DNA of 64,000 nucleotides. Origin: Candidatus Methanoplasma cognatum. Lineage in GTDB: Archaea; Thermoplasmatota; Thermoplasmata; Methanomassiliicoccales; Methanomethylophilaceae. Below are positions 3,387 through 61,227 of the stretch, one piece after another. Within the stretch, counting starts at the first letter, position 1; each line of letters starts with the position of its first letter. Made by a program: the position numbers and the translations under genes. The notes under the pieces were generated by a model. It made no database searches. It was not told the DNA's origin and was given only the letters and a program-made list of their open reading frames with translations. The stretch is from the NCBI GenBank assembly GCA_009777615.1, contig WRLM01000005.1:23370-87369 (forward strand), written 5' to 3'.

Positions 3387-3485
3387 GGGCCCGTGGCTTA
3401 GCCAGGATATAGCGCTGGCCTTCTAAGCCAGACGCCTCGGGTTCGAAAGTTCCTGACGAGGGGACCGAAAGTCCCGACGGGCCCG
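3387..3485 (+). tRNA. tRNA-Arg(TCT) with a 24-nt non-canonical intron in the T-loop (3448-3471, position 59/60)
   Basis: Acceptor GGGCCCG/CGGGCCC. Anticodon stem CTGGC/GCCAG with loop CTTCTAA. T-stem TCGGG/CCCGA encloses 31 nt instead of 7. The insert folds as a bulge-helix-bulge. CCA is encoded at 3486-3488. Confidence 0.85.
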
Positions 3486-3534
3486 CCAAAGGATGCATCG
3501 TTGCGGCGATGGACATCCGCGAAGAGGAAATAGC

Positions 3535-3642
3535 ATGAAAAGAAGCTCACGCGCCTGGAAGAAACGCGGCAACCAGCGTTGGAAATGGCGCAAGAAGAAG
3601 ATGAGAAGAAGAAAGAGAGCAGCAAAGTTACGCAAGAAGTGA
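3535..3642 (+). CDS. rpl41e: Ribosomal protein eL41 (35 aa); missed by the ORF track because it is under 60 aa
   Basis: Translation is MKRSSRAWKKRGNQRWKWRKKKMRRRKRAAKLRKK*, matching the eL41 signature KW(R/K)KK(R/K)MRR.KRK. GAGGAAA lies upstream of the ATG. Stop is TGA. Confidence 0.8.
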   Translation: MKRSSRAWKKRGNQRWKWRKKKMRRRKRAAKLRKK

Positions 3643-3660
3643 TCCTGACAGTGACATCAA

Positions 3661-3828
3661 GGGAGTATAGGCTAACCTGGCAGACTGGCGGGCTCCAGTT
3701 ATCGAGAATGATTAGGAGAGCTTGCTGACAGTTGATGAGTAACTGGAGCGATGACTCATAATTTCGCGGAGGGTAGCTCCCTCCGTGGTGGAAACCCGCT
3801 GACGGGGGTTCAAATCCCTCTGCTCCCA
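3661..3828 (+). tRNA. tRNA-Trp(CCA) with an intron of about 95 nt next to the anticodon (roughly 3699-3793)
   Basis: Acceptor GGGAGTA/TGCTCCC with discriminator A. Anticodon stem GCGGG (3688-3692) pairs with CCCGC (3795-3799). Anticodon CCA is at 3695-3697. T-arm is GGGGG-TTCAAAT-CCCTC. The D-stem pairs imperfectly and the exact splice sites are uncertain. Confidence 0.8.
3699..3761 (+). ncRNA. Box C/D guide RNA embedded in the tRNA-Trp intron
   Basis: Terminal stem TTATCGAG (3699-3706) pairs with CTCATAA (3755-3761). Box C is ATGATTA (3708-3714), D' is CTGA (3725-3728), C' is TGATGA (3733-3738) and D is the variant ATGA (3751-3754). The 12-nt D guide contains AACTGGAGC, complementary to GCTCCAGTT of the anticodon loop. 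Confidence 0.65.
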
Positions 3829-3870
3829 CCTTGCGTAACTAGCTGGCCTCTTAAACCTCTTCCAATAAAA

Positions 3871-3890
3871 CTCTTCTCTTCTCGTTTTTA
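3871..3890 (+). terminator. Pyrimidine-rich tract with a T5 run downstream of tRNA-Trp; possible archaeal terminator
   Basis: CTCTTCTCTTCTCGTTTTTA lies 43 nt after the tRNA 3' end. Confidence 0.3.
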
Positions 3891-4974
3891 AAAATTATGC
3901 GGCGCCCCGATTGATCTCCGGCCTGGGGGCCGGAGAGGTATGATTTTATCTTCAGCACAGAATCGCTATACTATCGCGTCCCACATCGTTACAGATCACG
4001 CTTTTGAAAATGTCTCTGCCCCATCAAGGCATATCCTCACGCCCGACATGGGTATGGTCGTCCCAGCCGCTCTTCGGGCAAGGCTGGCAGGCGTATGATC
4101 CCATCGCTTAGAACGTATTCTCTATAAGCGGTGGTTCTCTTATTGCTTCCCTTTGCGCATTGGCTTATCCATTATATGTGGCAAGGATCGATCCGAGATA
4201 CCGTTATCTCTAGTGTAAAGGGCCGCATTTGCGCCGTACCTCTTGGACGCTGTCCGTCTTCATAATCAGTTCAGAGGAAACCTGCAAGATAGAGCGTAAG
4301 CAGGATCAGTGAAACCGCGACTACGATCACTATTGCTGCTATGTACTTGGTTTTGATTTTATCACCTTAGACGGAAAATGGGCTTGCATATATAGGTAGA
4401 TTTCGTTCTCTTAGTCCTCTGAACCACGTTCCCGCGTGGTATATGTCATTGCAGCCGGCGGGGTGTTTTGTACGTCCGTATGTGATAGGTACGGTTTCGG
4501 CTCAGCAAAACCGATTCTGCAAAAGGTGAAAGGCCCCATTGAAGGTCGCCGCACACTGGAGAACGCGGAGGTATCCGATGGAAACAGTGGCGTCGTTCAT
4601 ACGAGGGGTACCGATGCTCCGGACTGCGGGCGTTGCGGTCCACGCTCCTTGTGGCTGTATTTGTATTCCGATAGTGGCCACATAAGGGGTTCCTGTATGT
4701 TTTCATGATCATGGCCACTAGATTGGTTCTATGGCGTATTTTTGTTTCATACTGTGTTAATATTAGTCAACATCGATGAAAGTTTTTGCGTTACGGATCC
4801 ATTTGACGTAAAAGGCCATAGACAACGGCCTTCAATGGAGTATAGCGTATACAAATTATATTAAATACGCATAAAAAAGGGATAAAATATACAAAAATTA
4901 TATACGGTGTTACGTAATCTGTTGCAATTAATATCGTTCCGGAGAAACTCCGTAATCGGCAGAATGAGTCGGGA

Positions 4975-5094
4975 ATGATGATACAGGGGGGGTGCAGTAT
5001 TAGATTACATCTTAGTATAGGCGGACGTGTTTCCGCACCAACGGCAATAATAGCAGTGTTAATAATGGTCGCAGTGCCTTTCACTGCAGTATAG
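4975..5094 (+). other. Candidate N-terminal leader of the giant surface protein, in frame with it and ending at a single TAG (5092-5094)
   Basis: ATG-ATG at 4975-4980 is in the same frame as the ORF at 5125. Translation is MMIQGGCSIRLHLSIGGRVSAPTAIIAVLIMVAVPFTAV, then TAG, then FNTEYTGGSPLRTVSYNANNG. The hydrophobic core resembles a signal peptide. Confidence 0.45.
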
Positions 5095-5124
5095 TTCAAT
5101 ACAGAATACACCGGCGGATCGCCT

Positions 5125-8100
5125 TTGAGGACGGTCTCATATAACGCCAATAATGGATTCGGACCCGTTCCGGATACCACAACATTTGAGATAGGAATGG
5201 ATTCTTCAGAGGTGCTTTTCGATCCTCTGCCCAGCAGAGCAGGTTATGTGTTTGTAGGTTGGAGTTCGTCTCCCACTGAGTTTGATGATCACAGAACTGT
5301 CGAATACGGCTTCACAACGCCTTACGAGGACAGATTCTTCATAGGGAGCACCGATGTCGTTTTCTATGCTCAATGGCAGGAGATACCGTCTGCATCGAAG
5401 TTTCTGCTGACCAACGCAGCCACGGATCAAGACAGAAACAGAGAGATAACGTGGGACCCGGACGAAAATGGCGGTTCAGGCGCATACAAATACCGCGTAG
5501 CCACAAATGATGCTAACACCACATGGAGTACGTGGCTGATCCTGGAGAGCAACATAATTCAATTTTCCAGCAGCGGCGGGTTCAGATGGGGGAGCATTGT
5601 ATTCACTTTAACAAATAACACTCCTTACCCGAATGATTATCGCCTGTATGTCGTTTTAGATGCTATTTCTATAAACGATAGTAGAACGGCCGCAGGAAAT
5701 AACAAAGTGAATATAAACCCAGGGGCCAAAGTGATTTTTCAGTTGGTCGGCGATAGCACCATAATACACAACTCTATTTCTTCAGCGGCCATAAGGGCCG
5801 TCGAGGACGGATCTGGCTATTCTGACGTCATAATAACGGGACAGGGTGAAGGAAGCCTAAAGATAAGCCGAACAAACGCGGCCATATCGACGGGTGCTTT
5901 GATCGGAGGCAACGGCGGCGTAAGCGCGGGGCAGTCCGGAGAGAAAGGCGGGCACATACGAATAGAATCAGGATCGCTGGAACTGTACCACAACTCTGGC
6001 GGCGCTACATTGCGCGGGGCCTCCATCGGCGGCGGAGGACGGACCGACGGGGGCTATGCGAGCGGCGGGGACGGAGGCGTCTTCGAAATGCACGGTGGCA
6101 AGATCGAATCTTATCAGAATTCTACTCTTGCCGTTTATTCACCAGCAATAGGGGGAGGGGGAGCATCCGACACATCGATAAGGGCCGGGCACGGAGGCAT
6201 CATAACAATAACCGGCGGGTCGATCGATATATCTCAGGACTGCTCGGACGGCACATACGGGTTGCGCGGCGCCGCTATTGGCGGGGCTTCCAACCGTAAT
6301 TCAAAATCAGGAGACAGCGGGACCATAGATATATCCGGCGGTACGATTATAATAAAGCAGACATCGGGAGCGGTGTCCGGAACGGGAATAGGGGCGGCAT
6401 CCGGTCAATATTATTATGCATCGCCAGGTCATGCGATCGGAGTCAATGAGACAGGCGGCCAAAACTATGTATCGATAAGCGGAGGGTACATTGAAATACA
6501 TCAGACCAAAACAGGCACATCCATTTATGGCACCCTTAGGGGTGCCGGTATCGGCGGCGGTGCAGGCACCGAGCCCGGCGTGCCGGGAGGCGGAGCGGAT
6601 GTAAGGATATCCGGCGGATACGTGCTTGTGGACAGGAAATGTACCGGAACTATCACAAGAGGGCAAGGTGCAGCCATAGGAGGCGGTGCCGAGGAAACAC
6701 AACCATCAGTCGTGAATATAACGGGCGGAAATGTAAACGTGCGGGTCTCAATTACGGCAGGCACAGCTGCCGCCTACGCCGGTGCGGCGTTAGGGAGCAA
6801 TCTGGCCCCCCATTCAGGCTCTTACGTTCAAATCGATGGAGGAGTTATAAACATCTCCAGAACGCGCGGAACCGCGGAGATGAATGTTCCGATAGGCTCG
6901 AACGGGGATTTCGGGAAATCTCCAATCATTAACGGCGGATCTATAAGGGCATCCGGCAACATGGACCTGACAAGCGGAGGGTATGTGGTGGAAGACTCCC
7001 AAGGTAAGACCCTTATGATGTATGTCATCGATCTGGAACCAACGGACAATCCCCAGTCGTTGTTCGTCCGCAAAGCCGGATTCCTGTATTCAGAATATAA
7101 CGACACGGAAAGATATGCGGACTTCCATGTTCAGGGAAGACATATGAATCTGGATGTGGCAGGGATGTACTACGACTACCTTAACCTGTACCTTCCCATT
7201 GTGGATGAAACCACGCCTCATGAAATATCTCTCGAATACGACCCGAGCGGATTGGTGAAAACATTCACTGCTTACAAGCACTCCGTCTCAGGCGACGCCG
7301 TTGTTGCGGAAACAAACGTCGGTACGACAATGTACCGCGTCGTGTACAGGCTGGGTAACAAGCTGAGATATGAGGACGACATCGTGCACATAGCCGACAA
7401 TGTGGAGTTCACGCAATCGATCAGAGCGAAAACAGCCCATTTGAACGAAGCCGTCGCCCCGTGGTCCTTATCGTATGTGGAAAGACACAATATAGACCAC
7501 AACGACGACACGGCGGGGAAATCAGTGACTAGCCTGGGCGGAGAATATGATTATTTCGCGTCCGAGGCCCCGCTTGTCCTGGCTGCCGGAACCGTTCTCG
7601 TCAAAACTTCGTATGGTAACATAGAGTTCAAAACAGGCCAGCACATATCCGGGAGGTTAGTGATAACGGCTTCGGACGCCGACAGGATAGACGTTGTTTA
7701 TCATGATGATTATACGTACATAGAGGACACAACCGTAACCGGCCCCAGATCTCTGACGCGTGTTGTTGGAGAAGGATATAACCCCATCATCATCGGATAC
7801 AATGTCTCCGATGACCCGTGGGAACGGGACGGTACGGAACTGATCGCGATGACCCTGCCGGAACCTATTGACGTCCTATGGACATCCGCACTTTACAAGT
7901 TCGTAGAGTGGAGGCTTGGCAGCTCAGCCGGTTCCGCATACGATCCGGGCGACATTTACACAATACCTGCTGGGTCTTCAACGATCGACTTCTATTCTGT
8001 TTGGGGCATAAGGGGTTATGATGTGACCGTGACCATCATCGGCGATGAGTACGGTGTGGTCGACTATACCATAGAAGGCGTGACCAATACACTGACGGAG

Positions 8101-11100
8101 TCTGGAACGATATTCGTTCCGGACGGAGAAAGCATAACTCTCGAACACAGAGTGACAGCGTTGGACGGAGCGTTCGTTTCGTGGACAGGGGACATATACT
8201 CGACCGAACCCAGCATCATCCTTTCGAGCGGCGATAATTCCGATCTTTATCAGACGGTGATGTTCGCGTCCACTGTAGACACCTGGGAACTTACGCTCAA
8301 CCCCGGCGCGGGCGCAACTGCGGATGTGACGTATGGTTCGATGACCTTTACATATCCGTCGTCAGGCAATATGAACATACCGAACGGCGAAGCGTATGTT
8401 GAACTGAAAGATCCGCTTCCCGTTGGTAAGGCGTTCCTATATTGGTGGGGTACTGAGAATTATGTTACCCAGGCCTTCACGGCGAACATAGACGGGACGA
8501 ACATAGACCGCAGCTATACAGCGGCCTATGACGATGAGGCCAATGTTGTTACCCTGACGATAGAAGCGCCGGTGAAGGGAACTATCGGGCTTAAAGTCAA
8601 CAGTCTTACGATATCCGACATACCGTTCGGCGAACCCTTTAACGTCAGCAAGGACCACACGGCCGAGCTGAGCGCCGCACCGATGCCGGACTACGCATTC
8701 CTACACTGGGTCACTGACACATTGGGCAACTGCGGCAACAATCCATGGTCGTTCAGGGTCAGCGCCGATACGGAGGTAGACTCCATGTTCGTCCTTGCGA
8801 CCGATGTCCGCGTGCTTACGCTGACCGCCGCCGCCGGAGGAAGCGCATCGTATGCTTACACTTCTCCGTCTTCATTGACCATCACGGGGAGCGTCACGAC
8901 GAGCAGCATAAACGTCAATATTCCGATGAACACGTATGTGTCCCTTACGCATGCCGCATCCGGCGGCTATGCGTTCACGTACTGGTCGGGGAGCAAACCG
9001 GGTGTGGACAGCCCTCTGATATTTGAGATGGATGCTCCGTACTCCGTAACGGCCAACTTCACAAACAACGGCAGGGCCCTGACGATCGGAACGGACGGAG
9101 GACCCGGAACCGTTTCGATAACTATCGCCGCAACATCCACGACATTTGTTCTGGTGGAATCCACGGATGATACTCCGGCGGTCAAGACCATAACACTGCC
9201 TCTGAATGCTACCGGTTCGCTCACCGCATCGACGAGTCTGCCGTCACACTTCTCTGCCTGGTACAGCGGCTCTACTCCCGCCCTGTCTGGTCCGGATCCC
9301 ACAGTCTACTTCAGCCTGACAGGGAACCAGTCGGCCACAGCATTGTTTACGAAAGGCATAAGTGACCGGACTCTGACGCTGTCGGTGACAGGCACCGGCA
9401 CAATAACTCTGGAATTCGACTCGTATGTCATACATGATATAACCAGAGGCGGTGTGCGGGCGATATACCTCAGCGATGGTACGGATGTGATACTCGAAGC
9501 AGTGGAAACGGACGACGCCTCTCCATTTGAATTCTGGAGACGTACCGCTGGGGTCAGTTTTGATAACCCCTTTGATGTGAAAATGGATCAGGACCACGCT
9601 CTCGATGCAGTATTCACAACGTCTGGCGCCCTGCAGGTCAACATCGGAGTTCCGTTCAGCGATGGAACAGTGGGGGTATACATCGATGGGGACCCATACC
9701 CTACTACAACGGTCACGACGGGGACATGGACCAGGAACCTGCCAGTGGGCGCAGTAGTGACATTGGTGCCCGGCAGTGACTTCTCTTTCTGGGCAGGCAC
9801 CTACGGAGGAGTGGCCAACCCGCTGACCTTTACTCTCAGCATCAACTCCGTTTCTGTCGACGCATACTTTGCGCCGGGCGGCAGTGATCTTGTGATAGAT
9901 ATAGAAGGAACAGGAAATGTGGTCGTCAAATCATTGAGCACATCATTGGGCGTGGTGATACCGGCTTCAGGGTTCACAGTAACTCCGGCCGGCGCCCCGT
10001 TGACTATCCTGCTGGCATCCGGTACCTCTGTGGAATTGGAAGCGGCCCCCGCCCCTCCCGCAGGAGGCATCTTCTCCTACTGGAGCGGCTCATACCCAGG
10101 TATCGAACCGGAACTGACATTTGCTATGGGAGGCAGCGACGAGGCGGTCACGGCGAATTTCGTCGTGGGAGTGCCCGTCTACCTGACACTTGATACGGCA
10201 GGAGGACCCGGAACAGTGGGCGTATCCGTTGACGGTGACCAGATATATTCGGGGACCAGCGTAACGGTACCCTTCACATCCGGTACGGAAGTGGAGATAT
10301 CCGCGACGGCGGCGGGCGGTAATTTCTCATATTGGACGGTCAACACCGCCGCATCGCCTCTTGGCTTCCGGATATTCGACACACCGCAGGAGATCATAAT
10401 GGGAGGCACCTATTCCCTTACGGCAAACTTCACCGCGGCAGGAGACGAGAAGTCCCTCGACCTTGATGTGGGAGGGGCTGGAACAGGTTCTATAAATGTG
10501 ATCGTGGCGGCGGGCGGAGGCTCGCAGAGCATCTCTTCCGCAAAAACACTCTACTTCAGCACCGGAGCGGACGTGGCCCTGGCGGCGGAGACCGTCAGCG
10601 ACATGTTCTCATACTGGAGCGTTGTCGGGGCTCTCCCTGCGGCATTTGACATCCTTAAGGGAACGACCCAGACAGTCCGTATGAACGGCAACTACGATCT
10701 GACGGCCGTTTTCGCCGGCCCGGGGTACAGCACCCTTACGCTGTCCGTGATCGAAACGGGCACCATAACCGTGACGATCGACGGCGTAAGCTCGACGGTC
10801 ACATCGTACACCGGATACTTTGATAACACGGCGACGGTCGGCCTGACGGCTGTGGAGGGGGCATACACCAAATTCTCCTACTGGAGCGCAGGTGCGGGGT
10901 CGCTGCCTGCGGGCTTCGACCCCATAGAACCCACTCTGCAGTCTGTGGGCATGGGCAGTTCTTATAACATAGTCGCGAACTTTACCGAGACCTCCTACCG
11001 TCTCCTGAAGATCGACATATATCCGGCGGGTGCGGGAGAGGTGGATATAGGCATCGGAGGCAGTACCGTCACGACTGTGACGTCGCTGCAGGAGATGTAC

Positions 11101-14100
11101 ATAACCACAGACACGGTCGTGGTCCTGACCGCCGACGCATACGGTTCGGACAATATGTTCTCATTCTGGAGCGGCACCAGAGAAGGCATATCGGATACGC
11201 TGAACGTGACGATGAGCATCGCGCATGACATAACCGCAGTGTTCGCAGCCACAACAGGAGGCGTTACGCCATGGGATCTGGATGTGGAAGCGGACGGGCC
11301 AGGAAAGGTGCATGCTTTGATAGACGGCTATCCGATAGTGATCTCCGACTTCTATGGTCTGGGAGGCATACCTGTCACCGACGGAGTCCTGGTAGAGCTG
11401 GAGGCCCGCCCGGACACACTGGACGACACCTTCTATCTCTGGGTGAACGGCCCCGATGACGGAACCAGCACAAACCCGTCGACCTTCTACATCGATGATG
11501 ATCATTACATAATCGCTATGTTCACGAGTGCCGACGTTCTTGATCTGACGATAAACATCGTCGGCAACGGCACGGTCGATTACTCGATCAATGGCGGCAC
11601 TACGTACATAGCATATCCGGGATACACTGTTCAAATACCGTCCGGGACCACAGTTCACCTGCAGGCCAATCCGGGAGGCAGTAGCGCATTCTCATTCTGG
11701 AGCGGTGACTACGAGGGCGTGAGTGATGGAGCCAGCGATGACGTATTCTTCACAATGAATCACTCTCACACCATAACCGCACTGTTCACCACCGGCACAC
11801 CTTACACCCTGGCTTTGAGTATAGCGGGCGGCGAAGGATCAATAGGCGTCTCGGTCGAGATATCATCCGTGATGTATGGTTTCACATATACCAGTGCGAT
11901 GATGCCGGGCGTTGTGAACATCGATTCCGGCGTCGGTGTCACTCTAAAGGCGGTACCAGGTCCTAACAACCAGTTTTCCTACTGGTCGGGAACAGCCGTG
12001 CCCCCTACGTTCAGGATAGGGTTAGTCGAGAACGCTTTCCCCATGAATGACGACTACAATCTCACTGCGAACTTCACCGGAATCGATCACAGATCGCTCA
12101 CACTGGATATCTCAGGAGCCGGGACGATAGATCTGAAGATAGGGGCATATACGCACACGATCGTCGAGGCCGATCCAGCGTATGTGGGATACTTCAACAG
12201 CACTGATACTGTATCGCTTACAGCGGCACCAGTGAACCCGCTCATCACTTACTTCTCCTATTGGAACGTCACCGGCAGCACCCCGGGCGGATTCGATATA
12301 CTGGAGGATACGGAACAGGTGTTCACCACAAATGTCAACTACGTTCTCACAGCGGTATTCACCTCTGTGCCGTGGTACACTCTGGATATTTCCGCAGCGG
12401 GCAACGGTGAGGTCACTGTGGTGCTCGGCAGCGGAACATCCACTATAGCATCGGGCGGAAGCAGGACGCTGTACCTCAATGAGGACACGGAGGTCGGTCT
12501 GCTGGCAACAGAGACAGTTCCTGATAAGTTCTCGTACTGGCTCATACCTGTGGCAGGTAACATACCCGCCTCCTTTGACATATCCAGAGGTACGTTGCAG
12601 ACGATCAAGATGGAGGGCCACTATGATCTGACGGCGGTGTTCACAAACGGAACATACTACGAACTGACCCTGAAGGCAGTAGGTCCTGCCGGAACATACA
12701 TCGCTGGAACATACATCGAAGTGACGCCGGTCGGCGGAGGAGGATCATTCGAAGTAAGGTCCGTGTCTTACAAAGGGTATTTCTCATACGGAGATCAGGT
12801 CGAACTGGCGGCGTCTAACGACGCCGCAACACCGAACCGCTTCTCTTACTGGAGCGGTACCAGCATGCCTGCGATCAGCACTATGAATGCCGGACAGACC
12901 GTTACGGTAGAAGATAGCTACGATATGACTGCGAATTTCACTTCGAACAACCCCCGTATGCTCATAGTAGGGATAGACGGAGACGGAAGCGTCGAGGTCA
13001 GGTTCGACGGCAGCGTGATAGGCATACTATACTCAAACACAGTAACGTACGCATCCAACGGCGTTCAGGTCACCCTCACCGCAGCTCCGATAACGGGCGT
13101 ATTCTCGTTCTGGAGCAGTAATGCGGGTGACAGTGTGTCGAACGTCCTTGCGTTTGCTATGAGCAGAGACCGCAATGCGACAGCAGTGTTCACCGACGGA
13201 GATCATGATCTCTCGCTTGCCGTGAACGGCGCCGCTTACGGATCGATATCCACAACAATTGAGACTCTTACAGACATATACACCATATCTATATTCGGAA
13301 CAATAGCAACACCTGTTTCCATACCTTTGAGCGATGGAACTCAGGTATCTTTGGGAGCGGTCCCGTCAACTTCGCCTTTCACCCGCCACTTCTCATTCTG
13401 GACCGGTACGGTGCCAGGCACTTTGAATCCTTTGGATATCACGATGGACGGCGACTACGGACAGACGGCGTACTTCACCGACGGGGCGAACGACGTGCAG
13501 CTGGTGGTGATCTTCGATGACAATCTGGGTAATGTAGAGCTCACGGTCCCCAGCCTGTCCGCATCACCGGTTCCGCTGGTATCAGGCGAGACGGTCTGGC
13601 TGAGCAAGGATCTGACCATATCGTTGATGGGCATTGCCGCGCAGATCACTCCTGTGAACCACTTCTCTTACTGGAGCAGCTTCATCGCTTCGATAGACAA
13701 TCCGTGGGAATTCACGCTGAACAATCTCAGCTATACCGTTTACGCATACTTCACCGACGGAACGGATGATCAAGAGCTTATACTTGATACAGCAGGGGCT
13801 GGCAAGATATCGCTGGTGATAGAAACGGCCATGGGCCCCGTGGGTCCGATCGATGTGGTCAGCGGGGGAACATGGTTCAACGGCGGAACGGAGATAAAAC
13901 TTACACCTGTTGCAACAGGTGCGGGTAATCGGTTCTCGTACTGGTCGGGTTCGGCAATGCCGGATGACTTCGACACAAGTTCCGGGGCACAGCAGACCGT
14001 AGAGATGGAAGACAGTTACAGTCTCACGGCCAACTTCACCGATGGCTCCAATGACCGCAACCTGGCCCTTAACGTGAACGGCGACGGCATGATCTCAGTA

Positions 14101-16890
14101 ACGATAAGCAGCCACACCTTCACCACTGATCACCTGGATATCTGGCTCAGCGACGGGGACACAGTGACCATAGAGGCGGTACCGGACACATCCGGCACGC
14201 CGGCCTGGAAGTTCTCAAACTGGGAGATGTCCGCTACCAGCGACACTCCCTCGCCGTTCTTCTCCACGACGGAAGCGAATACTTTCGAAATGGACGGGGA
14301 TTACGATCTCACAGCGATATTCTTCAAAGACGGCACAGGCTTCATGCTTGACCTTGGTGTTGATGGGAATGGAAAGATCGGGCTGACCGTCGGAGGATTC
14401 GCCGAAACGGTGACCGTACATTTCAGTCACGAGTTCGCATCCAACACGGAAGTGATAATCGAAGCCATACCCGACACAGTAAGCACGCCGGCCTGGAAGT
14501 TCTCCAACTGGGAGATGTCCGCTACCAGCGACACTCCCTCGCCATTCTATGCTCTGTCGGAGGACAACATCTTCGAAATGGACGGAGATTACAATCTCAC
14601 AGCGATATTCTTCGAAGACGGCACAGGCTTCATGCTTGACCTTGATGTTGATGGGAATGGAAAGATCGGGCTGACCGTCGGAGGATTCGCCGAAACGGTG
14701 ACCGTACCTTTCAGTCACGAGTTCGCATCCAACACGGAAGTGACCATCGAAGCCATACCTGGCACAGTAAGCACACCGGCATGGAAATTCTCCAACTGGG
14801 AGGTGTCTGCTATGAGCGACACTCCCTCGCCGTTCTATGCTCTGTCTGATACCAACACCTTCGAGATGGATGGGGATTACGATCTCACCGCGGTATTCTT
14901 CGAAGACGGCACAGGCTTCATGCTTGAACTTGATGTTGATGGGAACGGAAAGATCGAGCTGACCGTCGGAGGATTCACCGAAACGGTCACCACGCCATTC
15001 CATTACGAGTTCGCACCAGACACGGAAGTGACCATAGAGGCCGTGCCGGACACATCCGGCACGCCTGTATGGAAATTCTCCAACTGGGAGGTGTCTGCAA
15101 CAAGCGGTACTCCATCGCCTTTCTCTGTTCTGTCGGAGGATAACACCTTCGAGATGGATGGCGACTATGATCTGACGGCGATATTCTTCGCGGACGGCAC
15201 AGGCTTCACTTTGGAACTCGGTGTAACTGGCAACGGAACCATAGGGCTGACCGTCGGAGGATTCACCGAAACGGTGACCACACCCTTCAGCCATGAGTTC
15301 GCACCAGACACGGAAGTGACCATCGAAGCCATACCAAACACGCTGAGCACGCCAGCCTGGAAGTTCTCCAACTGGTCGATGTCCGCGACCAGCGGTGTTC
15401 CGTCTCCGTTCTCTTCTCTGTCTGATACCAACACCTTTGAGATAGACGGGGATTACGATCTCACCGCGGCATTCTTCGAAGATGGTACAGGCTTTATGCT
15501 CGACCTTGATGTTGATGGCAACGGAACCATAGGGCTGACCGTCGGAGGATTCACCGAAACGGTCACCACGCCATTCCATTACGAGTTCGCATCCAACATG
15601 GAAGTGACTATAGAGGCTGTGCCGGACACATCCGGCACGCCTGTGTGGAAATTCTCTAACTGGGTGATGTCCGCAACAAGCGGTACTCCATCGCCTTTCT
15701 CTGTTCTGTCGGAGGACAACACCTTTAGGATGGGCGGGAACTATGACCTCACCGCGGTATTCTTCGCGGACGGCACCGGCTTCACCCTTGGCCTGGACGT
15801 TGACGGGAATGGAAAGATCGAGCTGACCATCGGAGGATTCACCGAAACGGCGACCACGCCTTTCAGCCACGAATTCGCACCCGGCACGGAAGTGACCATT
15901 GAAGCCATACCAGATACACTGAGCACGCCCCCCTGGGAGTTTTCTAACTGGGATATATCTGCGAATAGCGGCACTCCCGCGCCCTTCTCTGCTATGTATG
16001 ATACCAATACCTTCGATATGGACGGGGACTTTGATCTCACCGCGGTGTTCACCCCTCTGCCTATCGGGCTCCTGTATTATTCCATCACCGCTACTGCCGA
16101 CGGAGGATCTACGATCTTCCCTAGCGGAAAGGTAGCTGTTCTTAGAGGAGATAATCAGACCTTCAAATTCTCACCGGCTGAGGGATTTGTGATATCTGCG
16201 CTGATAGTAGATGGGATAACTCTTTCTCAGGAATACATAGACCGCGGTTTCTACACTTTCCGTGCCGTGAACATGAATCACAGCATAGAAGTGAAGAGCG
16301 TCAGAGATCCGAGGGCCGGCATAACTCTGACAATCGATGTGATGGGAGGGAAGGGACATGCCGAATACAGCGTGAACAATGAACCGCCCATAAGATATAC
16401 AGCAGCCGTTAATCTTTCAATGTACGACGACCTCACGCTCAGAGCATATGCGGATGACGGATATGAGTTCAAGGAGTGGAAGGACGGAAACAGTGTGTAC
16501 ACAGACTCTGTGATCTCGTTCAGTGTCACAGGGAACATGCAGCTGGAACTCTACTTCAAGGAGGACAAGGGTCTGTTCGACAGCTTAATGTGGTGGTTCA
16601 TTGGGGTCATTCTGCTGCTGGTCATATTGGGCATCCTGATATGGATCTTCCTCTTCTACAGAAGGACATACGAGGTCATCAGGGTCGACTATTCAGCGTC
16701 CATCGCTGGCAAGGAAAGAGCACGCAGGAGGAGAGCGTACACATTCTCAGTGGAGGGAGGACCCGCTGAAACGGTATCCTACCGTGTCGGAGAAGAGGGG
16801 CAGTGGAAGACGTTATCTCCAAATCAAAATGGAGAATATGTCATACCCGCAGGAGACGTGACAGACAAGCTGACGATAGAGCGCCGCTGA
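5125..16890 (+). CDS. Giant cell-surface repeat protein (adhesin-like, 3,921 aa as tracked)
   Basis: One uninterrupted ORF. The N-terminus is a Listeria-Bacteroides-type repeat (VSYNANNGFG..GYVFVGWSS..VVFYAQW). A region of periodic GxxIGGG motifs (GASIGGGG, PAIGGGG, GAAIGG, GAGIGGG) suggests a Gly-rich beta-helix. About 30 domains of roughly 90 aa carry FS(Y/F)W(S/T)G..LTA(N/V)F. A C-terminal TM (LMWWFIGVILLLVILGILIWIFLFY) is followed by a basic cytoplasmic tail. The tracked start is TTG and the true start is uncertain. Confidence 0.85.
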   Translation: MRTVSYNANNGFGPVPDTTTFEIGMDSSEVLFDPLPSRAGYVFVGWSSSPTEFDDHRTVEYGFTTPYEDRFFIGSTDVVFYAQWQEIPSASKFLLTNAATDQDRNREITWDPDENGGSGAYKYRVATNDANTTWSTWLILESNIIQFSSSGGFRWGSIVFTLTNNTPYPNDYRLYVVLDAISINDSRTAAGNNKVNINPGAKVIFQLVGDSTIIHNSISSAAIRAVEDGSGYSDVIITGQGEGSLKISRTNAAISTGALIGGNGGVSAGQSGEKGGHIRIESGSLELYHNSGGATLRGASIGGGGRTDGGYASGGDGGVFEMHGGKIESYQNSTLAVYSPAIGGGGASDTSIRAGHGGIITITGGSIDISQDCSDGTYGLRGAAIGGASNRNSKSGDSGTIDISGGTIIIKQTSGAVSGTGIGAASGQYYYASPGHAIGVNETGGQNYVSISGGYIEIHQTKTGTSIYGTLRGAGIGGGAGTEPGVPGGGADVRISGGYVLVDRKCTGTITRGQGAAIGGGAEETQPSVVNITGGNVNVRVSITAGTAAAYAGAALGSNLAPHSGSYVQIDGGVINISRTRGTAEMNVPIGSNGDFGKSPIINGGSIRASGNMDLTSGGYVVEDSQGKTLMMYVIDLEPTDNPQSLFVRKAGFLYSEYNDTERYADFHVQGRHMNLDVAGMYYDYLNLYLPIVDETTPHEISLEYDPSGLVKTFTAYKHSVSGDAVVAETNVGTTMYRVVYRLGNKLRYEDDIVHIADNVEFTQSIRAKTAHLNEAVAPWSLSYVERHNIDHNDDTAGKSVTSLGGEYDYFASEAPLVLAAGTVLVKTSYGNIEFKTGQHISGRLVITASDADRIDVVYHDDYTYIEDTTVTGPRSLTRVVGEGYNPIIIGYNVSDDPWERDGTELIAMTLPEPIDVLWTSALYKFVEWRLGSSAGSAYDPGDIYTIPAGSSTIDFYSVWGIRGYDVTVTIIGDEYGVVDYTIEGVTNTLTESGTIFVPDGESITLEHRVTALDGAFVSWTGDIYSTEPSIILSSGDNSDLYQTVMFASTVDTWELTLNPGAGATADVTYGSMTFTYPSSGNMNIPNGEAYVELKDPLPVGKAFLYWWGTENYVTQAFTANIDGTNIDRSYTAAYDDEANVVTLTIEAPVKGTIGLKVNSLTISDIPFGEPFNVSKDHTAELSAAPMPDYAFLHWVTDTLGNCGNNPWSFRVSADTEVDSMFVLATDVRVLTLTAAAGGSASYAYTSPSSLTITGSVTTSSINVNIPMNTYVSLTHAASGGYAFTYWSGSKPGVDSPLIFEMDAPYSVTANFTNNGRALTIGTDGGPGTVSITIAATSTTFVLVESTDDTPAVKTITLPLNATGSLTASTSLPSHFSAWYSGSTPALSGPDPTVYFSLTGNQSATALFTKGISDRTLTLSVTGTGTITLEFDSYVIHDITRGGVRAIYLSDGTDVILEAVETDDASPFEFWRRTAGVSFDNPFDVKMDQDHALDAVFTTSGALQVNIGVPFSDGTVGVYIDGDPYPTTTVTTGTWTRNLPVGAVVTLVPGSDFSFWAGTYGGVANPLTFTLSINSVSVDAYFAPGGSDLVIDIEGTGNVVVKSLSTSLGVVIPASGFTVTPAGAPLTILLASGTSVELEAAPAPPAGGIFSYWSGSYPGIEPELTFAMGGSDEAVTANFVVGVPVYLTLDTAGGPGTVGVSVDGDQIYSGTSVTVPFTSGTEVEISATAAGGNFSYWTVNTAASPLGFRIFDTPQEIIMGGTYSLTANFTAAGDEKSLDLDVGGAGTGSINVIVAAGGGSQSISSAKTLYFSTGADVALAAETVSDMFSYWSVVGALPAAFDILKGTTQTVRMNGNYDLTAVFAGPGYSTLTLSVIETGTITVTIDGVSSTVTSYTGYFDNTATVGLTAVEGAYTKFSYWSAGAGSLPAGFDPIEPTLQSVGMGSSYNIVANFTETSYRLLKIDIYPAGAGEVDIGIGGSTVTTVTSLQEMYITTDTVVVLTADAYGSDNMFSFWSGTREGISDTLNVTMSIAHDITAVFAATTGGVTPWDLDVEADGPGKVHALIDGYPIVISDFYGLGGIPVTDGVLVELEARPDTLDDTFYLWVNGPDDGTSTNPSTFYIDDDHYIIAMFTSADVLDLTINIVGNGTVDYSINGGTTYIAYPGYTVQIPSGTTVHLQANPGGSSAFSFWSGDYEGVSDGASDDVFFTMNHSHTITALFTTGTPYTLALSIAGGEGSIGVSVEISSVMYGFTYTSAMMPGVVNIDSGVGVTLKAVPGPNNQFSYWSGTAVPPTFRIGLVENAFPMNDDYNLTANFTGIDHRSLTLDISGAGTIDLKIGAYTHTIVEADPAYVGYFNSTDTVSLTAAPVNPLITYFSYWNVTGSTPGGFDILEDTEQVFTTNVNYVLTAVFTSVPWYTLDISAAGNGEVTVVLGSGTSTIASGGSRTLYLNEDTEVGLLATETVPDKFSYWLIPVAGNIPASFDISRGTLQTIKMEGHYDLTAVFTNGTYYELTLKAVGPAGTYIAGTYIEVTPVGGGGSFEVRSVSYKGYFSYGDQVELAASNDAATPNRFSYWSGTSMPAISTMNAGQTVTVEDSYDMTANFTSNNPRMLIVGIDGDGSVEVRFDGSVIGILYSNTVTYASNGVQVTLTAAPITGVFSFWSSNAGDSVSNVLAFAMSRDRNATAVFTDGDHDLSLAVNGAAYGSISTTIETLTDIYTISIFGTIATPVSIPLSDGTQVSLGAVPSTSPFTRHFSFWTGTVPGTLNPLDITMDGDYGQTAYFTDGANDVQLVVIFDDNLGNVELTVPSLSASPVPLVSGETVWLSKDLTISLMGIAAQITPVNHFSYWSSFIASIDNPWEFTLNNLSYTVYAYFTDGTDDQELILDTAGAGKISLVIETAMGPVGPIDVVSGGTWFNGGTEIKLTPVATGAGNRFSYWSGSAMPDDFDTSSGAQQTVEMEDSYSLTANFTDGSNDRNLALNVNGDGMISVTISSHTFTTDHLDIWLSDGDTVTIEAVPDTSGTPAWKFSNWEMSATSDTPSPFFSTTEANTFEMDGDYDLTAIFFKDGTGFMLDLGVDGNGKIGLTVGGFAETVTVHFSHEFASNTEVIIEAIPDTVSTPAWKFSNWEMSATSDTPSPFYALSEDNIFEMDGDYNLTAIFFEDGTGFMLDLDVDGNGKIGLTVGGFAETVTVPFSHEFASNTEVTIEAIPGTVSTPAWKFSNWEVSAMSDTPSPFYALSDTNTFEMDGDYDLTAVFFEDGTGFMLELDVDGNGKIELTVGGFTETVTTPFHYEFAPDTEVTIEAVPDTSGTPVWKFSNWEVSATSGTPSPFSVLSEDNTFEMDGDYDLTAIFFADGTGFTLELGVTGNGTIGLTVGGFTETVTTPFSHEFAPDTEVTIEAIPNTLSTPAWKFSNWSMSATSGVPSPFSSLSDTNTFEIDGDYDLTAAFFEDGTGFMLDLDVDGNGTIGLTVGGFTETVTTPFHYEFASNMEVTIEAVPDTSGTPVWKFSNWVMSATSGTPSPFSVLSEDNTFRMGGNYDLTAVFFADGTGFTLGLDVDGNGKIELTIGGFTETATTPFSHEFAPGTEVTIEAIPDTLSTPPWEFSNWDISANSGTPAPFSAMYDTNTFDMDGDFDLTAVFTPLPIGLLYYSITATADGGSTIFPSGKVAVLRGDNQTFKFSPAEGFVISALIVDGITLSQEYIDRGFYTFRAVNMNHSIEVKSVRDPRAGITLTIDVMGGKGHAEYSVNNEPPIRYTAAVNLSMYDDLTLRAYADDGYEFKEWKDGNSVYTDSVISFSVTGNMQLELYFKEDKGLFDSLMWWFIGVILLLVILGILIWIFLFYRRTYEVIRVDYSASIAGKERARRRRAYTFSVEGGPAETVSYRVGEEGQWKTLSPNQNGEYVIPAGDVTDKLTIERR
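8020..16050 (+). repeat. Array of about 30 divergent Ig-like/InlB-B-repeat-like coding domains, each about 85-96 aa
   Basis: The motif F-S-(Y/F)-W-(S/T)-G ... Y-(D/N)-L-T-A-(N/V/I)-F recurs at about 90-residue spacing throughout. Confidence 0.8.
14190..16050 (+). repeat. About 6.5 near-identical tandem copies of a 288-bp (96-codon) unit inside the giant gene
   Basis: The TGG of W(K/E)FSNW recurs at 14206, 14494, 14782, 15070, 15358, 15646 and 15934, an exact 288-nt period. Units differ by only a few residues. Confidence 0.9.
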
Positions 16891-22696: not shown

Positions 22697-22915
22697 TCAG
22701 CCCCCTTCCCCGTCCTCGATGAATTCCAATATGTCCCCCGGCTGACATTTCAGCGTGGAGCATATGGCGTTCAGGGTCGAGAAACGTATCGCGCTGATCT
22801 TCCCCGTTTTTATGTTGGAAAGGTTGACGTTGGATATGCCCACTCTTTCCGCAAGTTCGTTCAGGGAGACCTTCCGGTCTGCCATCACCCTGTCAAGCCT
22901 TAGTATTATGGTCAT
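22697..22915 (-). CDS. XRE-family HTH transcriptional regulator (YozG-like, 72 aa)
   Basis: MTIILRLDRVMADRKVSLNELAERVGISNVNLSNIKTGKISAIRFSTL. The longer tracked ORF (to 23194) overlaps the upstream gene and was trimmed. Confidence 0.8.
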   Translation of the reverse strand: MTIILRLDRVMADRKVSLNELAERVGISNVNLSNIKTGKISAIRFSTLNAICSTLKCQPGDILEFIEDGEGG

Positions 22916-22919
22916 GCGA

Positions 22920-23432
22920 TCACAGCGTCTCGTCCGAATCCTTCTGCAATGCAACCCCGTACTTAAAGATAAGAGACAGGAAATAGAACAGCAGGGCCAT
23001 GAACAGCATTGCGGGATTGAATTGGAACAGCAGATCCGACTGCGCTTCCAGGAAATATATTCCCGCTGCGCTGATGATCGGCAGGATGACCGTTCCCACC
23101 AGCAGAAGGATGGCCAATCTTTCCAGGCATTTGACGTTATCGTCCATGAAAGGGGTGCCGTTTTTATACACGTTCGTGAAAAGACGATCGGCATAGTAAA
23201 GGGCGATCAGTCCGAAAGCCACCGCCACAATAATTATCGCGCACATCGACAGAACCTGGCCGCTTTTAGTAAACTCGTCGACATTATCCAGCACCATTTC
23301 CGGATCCAGGGCCGTAACGATCATCAAAATCAGTACGAGCGCTATCACCGCTATCAAAAAGACCATGAGGGCCTTCACCGCCAATCCCGCATACCGGCTG
23401 ATCTTGTTCAGCCTGTTCAAGGTATCATTCAT
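22920..23432 (-). CDS. DUF2975-like membrane protein
   Basis: 4-5 TM segments. It has the usual partnership with a YozG-type HTH gene 4 nt downstream. Confidence 0.55.
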   Translation of the reverse strand: MNDTLNRLNKISRYAGLAVKALMVFLIAVIALVLILMIVTALDPEMVLDNVDEFTKSGQVLSMCAIIIVAVAFGLIALYYADRLFTNVYKNGTPFMDDNVKCLERLAILLLVGTVILPIISAAGIYFLEAQSDLLFQFNPAMLFMALLFYFLSLIFKYGVALQKDSDETL

Positions 23433-23513
23433 ATTATCATTTCCTCCATATACACATAGTTAAGTTAGTGCAAAACACCGTTTGAAAAAAAGATCCGAAG
23501 AGGGCTTTGCAGA

Positions 23514-35250: not shown

Positions 35251-36036
35251 ATGCGAAGGATAGCACTTTACGGTAAGGGCGGCATTGGAAAATCAACGGT
35301 CGCATCGAACATTACCGCATCTCTTTCGAAAAAAGGGTACAGGGTGCTACAGATCGGATGCGACCCGAAAGCGGACTCCACCAAACTGTTGCTTGGCGGA
35401 GATTCGCCGATGACAATTTTGGATGCAGTCAAGAACGGCACCCCCCTCCGAGAATCGATTCGCAGAGGGGCGAACGGATGTTATTGCGCTGAATGCGGAG
35501 GCCCGAGACCCGGTTCCGGCTGCGCTGGTAGAGGGATAATCGCAGCCTTTGAACATCTTGAGCGGCAGAACGTGATCGAAGAGATTTCCCCGGATGTCCT
35601 GATATACGACGTGCTGGGCGACGTGGTATGCGGAGGGTTCGCGATGCCTATAAGGAACGGCTATGCCAAAGATGTTTTCATCGTGTCGTCTGGAGAGATG
35701 ATGTCCCTATACGCCGCGAACAACATTGCGACCGCTATATCGGACACGGATGGGGACGGATATGCGGTGCTGAGAGGCATAATACAGAATTCAAGAGGGA
35801 TAGACCATGAAGATGGAATGGTGGATAAAGCTGCCTTCGAGATGGGAACGAAGATAATAACGAGGATACCCAGAGACAAGACGGTGCAGCAGTGCGAGTC
35901 CATAGGCAAGACCGTGGTCGAGGGGGCTGCCGATTCCGAACTTTCCTTCGTATATGCGGAATTGGCAGACAGGGTGATCGAACACTCAAGCGACGCCGAG
36001 GGAGGCATGCGCTGCGGCGCAGAGGGGACGAAATGA
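35251..36036 (+). CDS. cfbC: Ni-sirohydrochlorin a,c-diamide reductive cyclase, NifH-like ATPase component
   Basis: [18 protein letters not shown] and [15 protein letters not shown] are NifH-family motifs with the cluster Cys residues. The gene lies inside the cfb cluster. Confidence 0.85.
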
Positions 36037-36812
36037 AAAAAGGAATATTGATAATCGGGCATGGGTCCAGATACAATTATAACAAATGGATCATGGAGGA
36101 GCAGAAGAAGAGACTTGAACAAAAGGGGTTCGGGAACGTATATATCGGATTCAATGAAACGACCTTTCCTCTGGTGAACGATGCTCTTGAAGACATGGTC
36201 TCGGACGGCGTGGAGGAAATCGTGGCGGTCCCCTTCTTCATAGCTTCCGGCCTCCATATAGCAAGGGACATACCGAACAAGCTGGGCATACCTCCCTGCG
36301 CAGACACGTACGTTGCCGAGATCAAAGGCAAAAAGATCTCCATAAGGTATGAGCGGCCGTTCGGCAGCGACCCCATGCTGGCGGCCATACTTTCCGAGAG
36401 GATAGAGGAACTGAGCAACGGCGGCAAGAACAGGTGGATAATGGTCATAGGGCACGGATCAAGGCTTCCTCATAACAAAGAAACCGTCCTTTTCCAGGCG
36501 GACCTGCTGAGGCGGAAGGGGTATGACAACGTCAGGTGTGCGTTCAACGAGTTTGATGAACCCTTCGTCGAGGACGTGTTCAAAGAGATGGTGTCCGGCG
36601 GGGCCGATGAAATAATAGTCCTGCCCCTCTTCATTTCTTTGGGCGCCCATCTTAAACACGATATCCCCCGGAAGATACACATCAGGGATGGCATGGCGGG
36701 GGAGGTGTTCGTTCACGGCGGCCGTAACGTAACGGTAAGGTACGCCGCACCCATCGGAAGCGACCCCAGGCTCACCGATATAATCGCGGAGAAGATTCGC
36801 GGCAGGGGGTGA
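36033..36812 (+). CDS. cfbA: Sirohydrochlorin nickel chelatase, tandem-duplicated (long) CbiX form
   Basis: Two CbiX halves each carry GHGSR and PxFIxxGxH ([20 protein letters not shown] and [20 protein letters not shown]). The start overlaps the cfbC stop as ATGA. Confidence 0.75.
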
Positions 36813-38011
36813 CCATGAACGTACTTATATTGGATGTTGTGCACGGGGGAGAGATCCTCGCCCAAGAATATTCGGAGAGGGGGCATTCGGTAGACTGTGT
36901 GGATGTCTACGGCATAGCTGGAGAGGACGTCATGTCAAAACTGATGGAAATGGGGGCGGCTGCACACAGAAAAGTGCCGAAGGGCCGTTACGATCTTATT
37001 CTGATGCCGGCGCATTGTCCTGACTCATTCCTCGAGGGCGTGGAGTACAAAGAAAAAAGAACATTCTCCGAAGCGGTGGGCGGGCTTTCCGACGGAAGGT
37101 CAAGGATAGAGGTGACCGGAGTGAAGGGGAAGACAAGCTGCTGCTATCTTCTGGCGCACATACTTTCGCTGGATGGAAGAAGCGTATTCCTGCATACTTC
37201 GAGGGGCCAGGGCGAATGGAGCGGCGGCGAACACATCATAGAAAAAAGGGTCAGCATAGCGCCCCCCTCCCTGCTGAGACTTCCCGAAGGATATGATACG
37301 GTGATAGCGGAGGTGTCCCTGGGCGGCAGCGGCAAAGCGGAACTCACGATCATCACGAACCTTGCCGATGACTACGGAATAGCTGCGAACACTAAGAAGG
37401 CCTCCGAAGCTAAGGCCTCGATATTTTCTCAAGGTAAGAACATCGTTCCCAGGTCGGAATCGGACATATGGTCGAAATACCGCAGCGATCTGATATATTT
37501 TGGCGAAAGAATAACCATCCTTGAAGGAACAGAGATCGGGAAACCGACTAGGATATCGATAGAATATGGCGGCAGATACGAGCTCAGCCTGCCGGAGAGC
37601 TACCTGCACCTCCAATACATCGACACAATCGAGGCGGTACTGGAGGCGTGTTCGGAGTCAGAGATCCCCGCGGAACAGGTCGTTAGAGGGCTGGAGACAT
37701 TCAACGGAGTTCCGGGAAGGGGGGAGCTGAAACGCTCCGAAAAAGGATGGGAGATAATGGACAGGAATCCGGGGATATCCCTTATATCGGTGGCCAAGAC
37801 CCTGGATACTTTGGAGAGGATGCATATCCTCAAAGACGTTCTGGTGATCCTGGATCCGGTGAACCGAAAGGTCTGTGAAAGGACGGATGCGGAACAAATA
37901 AGGGAAATTGCGGAGAAGAGGGGCGCAGAGTTTCGTCTTGCCTGTGACGGCGGGGACGCGCCCGCCGGCAAAAGCGTGATCGTAAGGCTGATAAAGGAGG
38001 GATATCAGTGA
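36809..38011 (+). CDS. cfbE: Coenzyme F430 synthetase (Mur-ligase family)
   Basis: VTGVKGKTS is a P-loop of MurD-like ligases. Cluster position supports the call. The start overlaps the cfbA stop. Confidence 0.8.
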   Translation: MTMNVLILDVVHGGEILAQEYSERGHSVDCVDVYGIAGEDVMSKLMEMGAAAHRKVPKGRYDLILMPAHCPDSFLEGVEYKEKRTFSEAVGGLSDGRSRIEVTGVKGKTSCCYLLAHILSLDGRSVFLHTSRGQGEWSGGEHIIEKRVSIAPPSLLRLPEGYDTVIAEVSLGGSGKAELTIITNLADDYGIAANTKKASEAKASIFSQGKNIVPRSESDIWSKYRSDLIYFGERITILEGTEIGKPTRISIEYGGRYELSLPESYLHLQYIDTIEAVLEACSESEIPAEQVVRGLETFNGVPGRGELKRSEKGWEIMDRNPGISLISVAKTLDTLERMHILKDVLVILDPVNRKVCERTDAEQIREIAEKRGAEFRLACDGGDAPAGKSVIVRLIKEGYQ

Positions 38012-60405: not shown

Positions 60406-60800
60406 TGCGTATCCAGCTCTTTGTTCACTAAGGCGTCGGCCATCGGTATGAGCATCTCGGAACGCCGTACGTTTTTGAAAGTGATATCGGGGATCATCGA
60501 CGAGAGGGCCATCGCGTCGAGGTACAGGCCTTTGATGCTGCCGCTCCTGATCTCGTACTCGCCGGTCATCTGTTTGATCACGAGCTCGGAGTCCATCACG
60601 AACTCCGCGCGTTCGGCTCCCAGTTCTATGGCTTTAGCCAGACCCGCTATCAGCCCTCGGTATTCGGCGTAGTTGTTGGTCCTGATACCCAGGAACTCGG
60701 AATGCTGGTGAATGATCTTGTCATCTTTGGTGACAACTATCGCATAAGCGGAAGGGCCTGGGTTGCCCCGCGATCCTCCGTCTGAGAATATTCGGTACAT
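60399..60800 (-). CDS. rnhA: Ribonuclease HI (type 1 RNase H)
   Basis: SDGGSRGNPGPSAYA, NNYAEYRGLIAGL and the DSELV pattern show the DEDD catalytic residues. The ATG overlaps the panD stop by 1 nt. Confidence 0.8.
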   Translation of the reverse strand: MYRIFSDGGSRGNPGPSAYAIVVTKDDKIIHQHSEFLGIRTNNYAEYRGLIAGLAKAIELGAERAEFVMDSELVIKQMTGEYEIRSGSIKGLYLDAMALSSMIPDITFKNVRRSEMLIPMADALVNKELDTHQ

Positions 60801-61147
60801 CAATACACGAATTCCTTGATTATTTTGTTGTTGTCGTCGACAAGGATCACCTTTGAGCCGATAGGTTCCGAGGTCAGCTCATACCCCATGATTATGATCT
60901 TGTCGCCTTTCTCGCAAAGTCTGGCGGCGGCACCGTTAATCGCCACCGTGCCGGTGCTCTTGTCGCCTTTGAAGACATAGGTCTCGAAGCGCGCGCCGTT
61001 GTTGACGTTTGCTATGGTGACCTTCTCCCCCACCCATATTCCGGCCCTCTCCAAAAGTTCCCCGTCTATAGTGATACTGCCTTCGTAATCTAGCCGGGTA
61101 TCTGTGACCGTCGCTCTATGGATCTTGCTTCTGAGCATCCATCGCAT
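60800..61147 (-). CDS. panD: Aspartate 1-decarboxylase, pyruvoyl-dependent (bacterial type)
   Basis: [28 protein letters not shown] includes the self-cleavage G-S site. ..NGAAARL.. is also present. The tracked ORF extension overlaps tRNA-Asp and was trimmed. Confidence 0.85.
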
Positions 61148-61227
61148 GATAATAGGTAACGCACATGATAAAAAGAATTTTTGGTATGTACGCTTCGACG
61201 ATTGCAATATGAAATCAGAACAATGAG

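Follow-up and report, generated by a model that had tools for sequence, protein, structure and literature searches.

A candidate pyrrolysine codon in the predicted signal peptide of a giant InlB B-repeat surface protein from a Methanoplasma-like archaeon

Internal TAG codons in genes other than methyltransferases have already been described as pyrrolysine (Pyl) codons in the archaeal lineage Methanomassiliicoccales (PMC4153887; bioRxiv 10.1101/2024.09.30.615893). Here we analyze a candidate for that class, a gene for a giant surface protein that is interrupted near its 5′ end by one in-frame TAG and that lies in a 64,000-nucleotide stretch of contig WRLM01000005.1 (the whole stretch is referred to as the window). 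In ‘Candidatus Methanomethylophilus alvus’, TAG accounts for 1.6% of stop codons and 16 Pyl proteins other than methyltransferases were predicted; by the prediction of the same study, an amber codon arising in frame should be stable as a mutation in Methanomassiliicoccales with low TAG usage (Borrel 2014, PMC4153887). Kivenson 2024 sorted TAG-containing genes by category and proposed Genetic Code 34, with Methanoplasma among the genera that have numerous internal TAG codons and for which this code was inferred; wherever proteomics of M. alvi and M. burtonii detected a peptide spanning a TAG, the residue at the TAG was Pyl, to the exclusion of other amino acids; and nearly all of the 1,903 Pyl proteins predicted were lineage-restricted singletons, probably arising by neutral mutation (bioRxiv 10.1101/2024.09.30.615893). 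For a native internal UAG of M. acetivorans, both the truncated and the full-length product are made (Shalvarjian 2025, PMC12626013).

Our comparison of the window with related loci indicates that positions 4975–16890 quite probably form one gene, with pyrrolysine as residue 40. We consider the gene to be probably read through its TAG because the parts before and after the TAG share one frame, homology extends to both sides, a Pyl cassette is present in the same bin, and TAG terminators are absent. A sequence-only reading of the window had suggested that the gene may span these coordinates with Pyl at codon 40; the Pyl machinery and the orthologues described below support that suggestion, and from them we infer the insertion of Pyl. 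Three features define the reading frame:

4975–16890, + strand: proposed complete gene for a giant InlB-B-repeat surface protein precursor; 3,971 codons plus TGA, one TAG, fused homologues, PF18998
5092–5094, + strand: candidate pyrrolysine codon, in-frame TAG, codon 40; present in three contigs from other assemblies (L003, L004, L013), a sense codon in homologues
5125–5127, + strand: TTG taken as the start by ORF (open reading frame) callers and by the public annotation; Leu51 in the proposed gene, aligned with the conserved Leu of the homologues' SPL motif

The leader frame is opened by ATG-ATG at 4975–4980 (+), and its 39 sense codons specify MMIQGGCSIRLHLSIGGRVSAPTAIIAVLIMVAVPFTAV; the TAG ends this frame directly; and after the TAG 3,931 codons are free of stops in the leader's frame, up to the TGA at 16888–16890. 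A mechanical ORF caller chose TTG 5125 as the start (product, 3,921 amino acids), the next in-frame ATG being that at 5197; gene callers agree, and the NCBI record MCL2032864.1, named ‘InlB B-repeat-containing protein’, begins at the same TTG. On the sequence itself we confirmed what had been claimed of both parts: a frame running from the two ATG codons that is open save for a single TAG, and a giant ORF of 3,921 codons from TTG 5125 with its first in-frame ATG at 5197. As to signs of a pseudogene, no second stop occurs across the 3,971 codons.

In six homologous Methanomassiliicoccales genes the leader is joined in frame to the repeats, and a sense codon occupies the place of the TAG. Two of them lie in the Methanomassiliicoccaceae metagenome-assembled genome (MAG) Nt197P3bin8 and came from a scan of species representatives, one was found in another MAG by protein search, and three were found by metagenome scan; the protein search with the joined N-terminus gave one match and missed the protein's own record; locus scans of genomes and metagenomes were far more productive. 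Identity between the homologues and the window is 55–63% over ~200 residues. Their shared architecture consists of a short basic N-terminus, the motif G-R-V/F-S-A/S, a hydrophobic stretch of ~20 residues with (A/T)(V/L/I/M) at its end, a single polar residue, the motif F-N/S-T/S-E/M-Y/H-T/S-x-G/A-S/A-P-L, and the first repeat. An alignment of four sequences shows G17, R18, V19, S20, A21, L29, I30, M31, A33, V34, P35 and T37 to be invariant before the TAG, and F41, T43, E44, P50 and L51 to be invariant after it. The codons at the site are as follows (L013 is a contig from JGI sample 3300002462; the six other handles denote the homologues):

Window and L013: TAG, stop or Pyl
L005: AAT, Asn
L006: AAC, Asn
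L012: CAG, Gln
L014: GAT, Asp
L015: GAC, Asp
L016: CAT, His

Scanning of the homologous loci revealed no in-frame TAG in any of them; the TAG of L015 falls in its 5′ untranslated region. Judged from this alignment, the TAG occupies a site that varies among polar residues and borders the hydrophobic core; the TAG probably arose from CAG through a single C-to-T change (a transition). Because six related genes have in-frame leaders homologous to this one, the arrangement of leader, TAG and body is not due to chance. In the alignment TTG 5125 falls on the conserved Leu of S-P-L and is therefore an internal codon, not a start; the public annotation that begins there is truncated. The orthologue comparison that had been proposed as a check on the gene thus gave a clear outcome: the relatives have no downstream start with a leader of its own, and instead have the same leader fused in frame through a sense codon.

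The genes required for decoding UAG were sought with M. alvus PylRS and then with a termite-type PylS as queries, and the PylS that belongs with the window (P0186, MCL2032193.1) was reached through cluster members and accession numbers. Its accession lies 671 below that of the giant protein, within the same MAG accession block, in which the window proteins are MCL2032864, MCL2032888 and MCL2032907; the contigs that encode P0186 come from ERZ27257302 and JGI 3300002469, samples that also hold the window's contigs. The pyl locus (L103, 14 kb) has a GC (guanine plus cytosine) content of 53.3% and a tetranucleotide correlation to the window of r = 0.94, equal to that of window pieces among themselves; it contains mttB, corrinoid proteins, two mtmB genes, a RamA-like activase, pylT, pylS, pylB, pylC and pylD. 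Its PylS and the PylS of Ca. Methanoplasma termitum share 79% identity, and the 90% cluster of the former includes a ‘Candidatus Methanoplasma sp.’ protein. Both mtmB copies have a TAG at codon 202 in GMGI*GPE, and a TAG interrupts mttB. The search for Pyl machinery that had been proposed as a check therefore found pylT-pylSBCD in the same MAG bin, next to methyltransferase genes with in-frame TAGs. The tRNA gene is:

L103, 9932–10001: pylT, CTA anticodon; 97% identity, or 2 differences, with the pylT of L093, which ARAGORN calls

ARAGORN misses the L103 pylT, which was found by its similarity to the L093 gene, so scans of such genomes for tRNA-Pyl may give false negatives. The L103 methyltransferases are called in pieces: mtmB as 4208–4813 and 4859–5593, and as 5761–6366 and 6382–7140; mttB as 1–587 and 654–1079. 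Three other PylS candidates were rejected: P0041, whose cassette (L093) is from the same sample and has a GC content of 61% and a tetranucleotide correlation to the window of r = 0.57, belongs to another organism, and P0124 and P0125 are from other samples. Several Pyl-using Methanomassiliicoccales coexist in these samples, at least two extra Methanoplasma-like pylTSBCD cassettes being those of other organisms: L093 (ERZ27257302 k141_647437, GC 61%) and L095 (from the sister metagenome ERZ27257311, GC 56%).

Use of TAG as a terminator was counted in three sets of sequence:

Called genes in the window: 50 terminators, 0 TAG
Further 20 kb of flanks: 19 terminators, 0 TAG
Pyl contig L103: 15 terminators, 0 TAG

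Overall, none of ~84 terminators is TAG (95% upper bound ~3.5%; ~98 kb of genome sampled), and the earlier statement that no coding sequence of the window ends in TAG holds for all 50 called genes. The in-frame TAGs seen in the ~98 kb are four internal ones only, those of the giant gene, the two mtmB genes and mttB. The sole long ORF ending in TAG, at 22755–23459, is antisense to a called helix-turn-helix gene; no other TAG-interrupted gene was found in the window, where the remaining candidates lie upstream of called genes or on the strand opposite them.

The proposed gene product is organized as follows:

4975–5028, + strand: start codons ATG-ATG and n-region, residues 1–18, MMIQGGCSIRLHLSIGGR; 4975 is the presumed start in preference to 4978
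5029–5091, + strand: hydrophobic core of the leader, residues 19–39, VSAPTAIIAVLIMVAVPFTAV; Kyte-Doolittle means over 15 residues, 2.4–2.8
5095–5118, + strand: polar stretch FNTEYTGG, residues 41–48; [TS]-x-[GA] then [SA]-P-L, conserved in all seven sequences
5131–5277, + strand: first Listeria-Bacteroides (Flg_new) repeat, PF09479 at residues 13–61 of the translation from 5095; 17.5 bits, below the 27-bit cut-off
16585–16659, + strand: single C-terminal transmembrane helix LMWWFIGVILLLVILGILIWIFLFY, then basic tail RRTYEV..., from the translation; the topology is a prediction

Hydropathy is highest at residues 19–39 and falls exactly at the TAG. This hydropathy profile would fit a Sec-type signal peptide in a type I membrane protein, as would the two Arg of the n-region, the [TS]-x-[GA]/[SA]-P-L motif and the C-terminal helix; a probable signal-peptidase site lies between G48 and S49, eight residues past the TAG, although the leader could instead serve as an uncleaved anchor. 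The n-region (residues 1–18) is longer and less basic than the M[RHK]K..G.SGR start of the homologues. Beyond the leader, Pfam PF18998 (InlB B-repeat) matches four stretches of the giant protein (6e-46), and the weak PF09479 match begins 12 residues past the TAG, at the same place as PF09479 in the homologue P0001. The upstream segment had been described as a charged n-region with a hydrophobic core and the rest of the protein as an extracytoplasmic body of repeats with one C-terminal transmembrane segment; both descriptions are borne out, with the core measured as 21 residues. A second Flg_new (PF09479) protein, of 1,054 amino acids, is encoded ~9 kb upstream of the window start on the same contig (L105, 3223–6387); it has an intact MKK plus hydrophobic leader, and its tail, ...YTIPGEYVSDKIYLENHP, resembles that of the giant protein, ...GEYVIPAGDVTDKLTIERR.

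We propose the following course of expression. With pylT-pylSBCD present and TAG essentially abandoned as a terminator, charged Pyl-tRNA(CUA) would insert Pyl at the UAG of codon 40; the precursor would then carry the n-region, the 21-residue hydrophobic core, Pyl and FNTEYTGG as its N-terminal signal peptide, and the remainder would comprise an extracellular repeat region of ~3,900 residues, a single membrane anchor at the C-terminus and, on the cytoplasmic side, a short tail. Cleavage at G48/S49 after export would discard Pyl with the signal peptide, so that Pyl is probably absent from the mature protein. The TAG codon is probably near-neutral with respect to selection. No stem-loop resembling a pyrrolysine insertion sequence (PYLIS) was detected 3′ of the TAG in a fold of 5085–5215 (z = −1.1 vs. 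shuffles), and Rfam gave no relevant match near the site; according to the literature, a downstream RNA element is unnecessary for Pyl insertion.

The TAG is present in several assemblies. ENA ERZ27257348 (L003, a 310-kb contig) and ERZ27257302 (L004) match the window exactly over the 511 bases around this codon, and the same TAG is carried by L013. The latter represents a distinguishable strain, since it differs from the window by eight substitutions and two indels, all at 4170–4841; over the first 3.1 kb of the giant gene there is no difference at any determined base. The clustering of these differences in 4170–4841 may reflect a local variable tract, and we do not rely on them as a test of selection. 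A contig of JGI 3300002469 encodes an identical 3,921-residue downstream product apart from the call of the start residue (a comparison at the level of the protein downstream of the TAG). As a separate observation, the ERZ27257302 contig (k141_3083320, L004) loses register with the window past ~20832, within intergenic sequence ahead of the gene for homoserine dehydrogenase, and its called genes are shifted by 2 bases from there on, which fits a small indel and thus strain-level variation in the sample.

Some considerations weigh against a gene that is read through with Pyl. The insertion of Pyl at codon 40 is deduced rather than observed, and a fraction of ribosomes may terminate after the 39-residue leader; UAG is still recognized by the archaeal release factor (PMC12626013); the TAG is found in one lineage only among seven homologues, and a recent nonsense mutation would look identical; every copy of the gene found is identical, so that selection after the appearance of the TAG is not measurable; the n-region is atypical, being long, with two Arg only and zero Lys; and the pyl contig is tied to the window by bin, samples and composition, not by contiguous sequence. 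In a rival reading, a recent nonsense mutation (CAG or similar to TAG) stops most translation after 39 residues, making this a young pseudogene, or a strongly down-regulated gene, that has yet to suffer further damage. We regard this as unlikely, though it deserves to be taken seriously. Giant adhesin genes are often dispensable. The TAG is a lineage-specific singleton opposite sense codons in the homologues, and termination at UAG can still occur in a Pyl-using archaeon (PMC12626013); however, with a full Pyl cassette and no TAG among ~84 terminators, Pyl-tRNA is expected to read UAG, and the 11.8 kb downstream of the TAG contain neither a stop nor a frameshift. That the TAG is common to two strains, with 10 differences in the 0.7 kb upstream and none over the first 3.1 kb of coding sequence, also speaks against such a mutation, albeit weakly given that the differences are clustered.

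Read-through with Pyl might itself be put to use. Given that every ribosome meets the UAG before the export signal is complete, the TAG could act as a gate that ties adhesin output to the supply of charged Pyl-tRNA, with display only when methylamines are available; or the bulky, possibly charged Pyl, sitting where the hydrophobic core ends, could tune membrane insertion or signal-peptidase processing. We regard either role as a long shot. The pyl genes of M. acetivorans are up-regulated on trimethylamine, so that in at least some methanogens their expression tracks methylamine availability (PMC12626013).

Separate initiation at TTG 5125 or ATG 5197, which would yield a leaderless protein and leave the 39-codon ORF as a separate small gene or untranslated, is very improbable. 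The gene callers and the NCBI annotation picked the TTG, but codons 41–50 (FNTEYT..SPL), which such a start would leave out, are conserved coding sequence in all homologues, in which the TTG aligns with an internal Leu; a start at 5125 or at 5197 would remove the only N-terminal export signal from a protein with extracellular repeats and an anchor; ATG 5197 cuts into the first repeat; and inspection of the sequence before 5125 found no Shine-Dalgarno-like motif. Still harder to sustain is read-through by a standard near-cognate tRNA (e.g. for Gln or Tyr) in place of Pyl: near-cognate suppression of UAG occurs at a low level in many organisms, but this genome has a dedicated tRNA (anticodon CUA) and the matching synthetase, and no other amino acid was found at TAG positions in M. 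alvi (bioRxiv 10.1101/2024.09.30.615893). A sequencing or assembly error at 5092–5094, which the sequence-only reading had kept as an alternative in the form of a base-call error, is excluded with a negligible residual probability because the same TAG occurs in ERZ27257348, ERZ27257302 and JGI 3300002462, including a distinguishable strain, the downstream protein being identical in JGI 3300002469 as well.

Upstream of the proposed gene, one further feature may be relevant to its expression:

4880–4906, + strand: possible archaeal promoter, AT-rich TATA-like stretch ggataaaatatacaaaaattatatac, ~70–95 nt upstream of the ATG, proposed from its base sequence

It lies within 3465–4974, ~1.5 kb directly upstream of the giant gene that holds no convincing gene and contains all of the L013 differences. 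Adjacent to this region, 3390–3464 (+) gives a weak tRNA-like match in Rfam (32 bits, just over the gathering score) with the anticodon loop CUUCUAA; ARAGORN makes no call there.

The source of the window is a Methanoplasma-like member of the Methanomassiliicoccales, Methanoplasma being the nearest named genus. Housekeeping genes of the window are archaeal (topoisomerase VI, class I lysyl-tRNA synthetase); the NCBI label on its proteins is Methanomassiliicoccaceae archaeon; and these labels, together with the scan for homologues, agree with the earlier assignment to the Methanomassiliicoccales. A cluster at 35251–40397 (+) encodes, by Pfam names only, a NifH-like protein (Fer4_NifH), CbiX, an unassigned 398-residue protein, Oxidored_nitro and an amidase of the CbiA type; the cluster resembles the genes for coenzyme F430 biosynthesis (cfb), consistent with a methanogen. 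Elsewhere in the window, the longest form of a 158-residue ORF at 60800–61276 (−) overlaps tRNA-Asp at 61227–61300 (−) by ~50 bases, and its start is probably further downstream.

The mis-annotation of the giant gene has practical consequences: MCL2032864.1 is without an export signal, and prediction of localization would wrongly give cytoplasmic for a giant surface adhesin; re-annotation of genomes of this kind with TAG treated as sense would remedy this. The gene also adds a homology-supported internal TAG to the evidence that TAG means pyrrolysine in termite-gut Methanoplasma-like methanogens, and suggests that signal peptides can accommodate Pyl codons, the residue there being probably lost on cleavage, a tolerant site of the kind expected if such codons spread by drift. 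It further offers a natural assay of read-through: without read-through, no exported protein would be made.

Compared with known systems, the giant gene shares its decoding machinery with the methyltransferases MtmB, MtbB and MttB, and mtmB and mttB of the same genome contain in-frame TAGs; whereas the Pyl position of the methyltransferases is conserved and catalytic, that of the giant gene is lineage-specific and falls at a variable position of the leader. In the tRNA-His guanylyltransferase Thg1 of Methanosarcina acetivorans, Pyl was reportedly tested experimentally, found at a non-conserved, tolerant position, and read as drift. The giant gene resembles Thg1 in having its TAG at a tolerant, variable site; the proteins and the lineages differ, and the Thg1 case is experimental whereas ours comes from sequence comparison.

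The set of Borrel 2014 from M. alvus belongs to the same order and was built on the same logic of two halves matching one homologue, and both genomes avoid TAG stops (1.6% there vs. 0 of ~84 here); it differs in genus, and in the parts of that paper considered here its Table 7 comprises enzymes and hypothetical proteins, with no mention of a signal-peptide position. The RdmS sensor kinase of M. acetivorans (PMC12626013) is likewise a non-methyltransferase gene with a native internal UAG in a Pyl-using methanogen, but its host still uses some TAG stops and none was seen here, so read-through would be expected to be more complete in the organism studied here. The closest counterpart is ‘Category 1’ of Kivenson, with which the giant gene shares an internal TAG, homology on both sides and an extension of >15 residues (here 3,931 codons), and the genome shares pylTSBCD, few or no TAG terminators and TAGs in methyltransferase genes; the TAG of the giant gene is also a singleton restricted to one lineage, like nearly all of theirs. 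What differs is the setting of the TAG, the signal peptide of a surface protein of ~4,000 residues and not an enzyme, and that it is known here from the sequence alone. On these comparisons the giant gene fits the pattern of Genetic Code 34 archaea; it points to no new mechanism, and what is unusual about it is only the location of the candidate Pyl codon in the signal peptide of an adhesin-like protein of this size and the mis-annotation that results.

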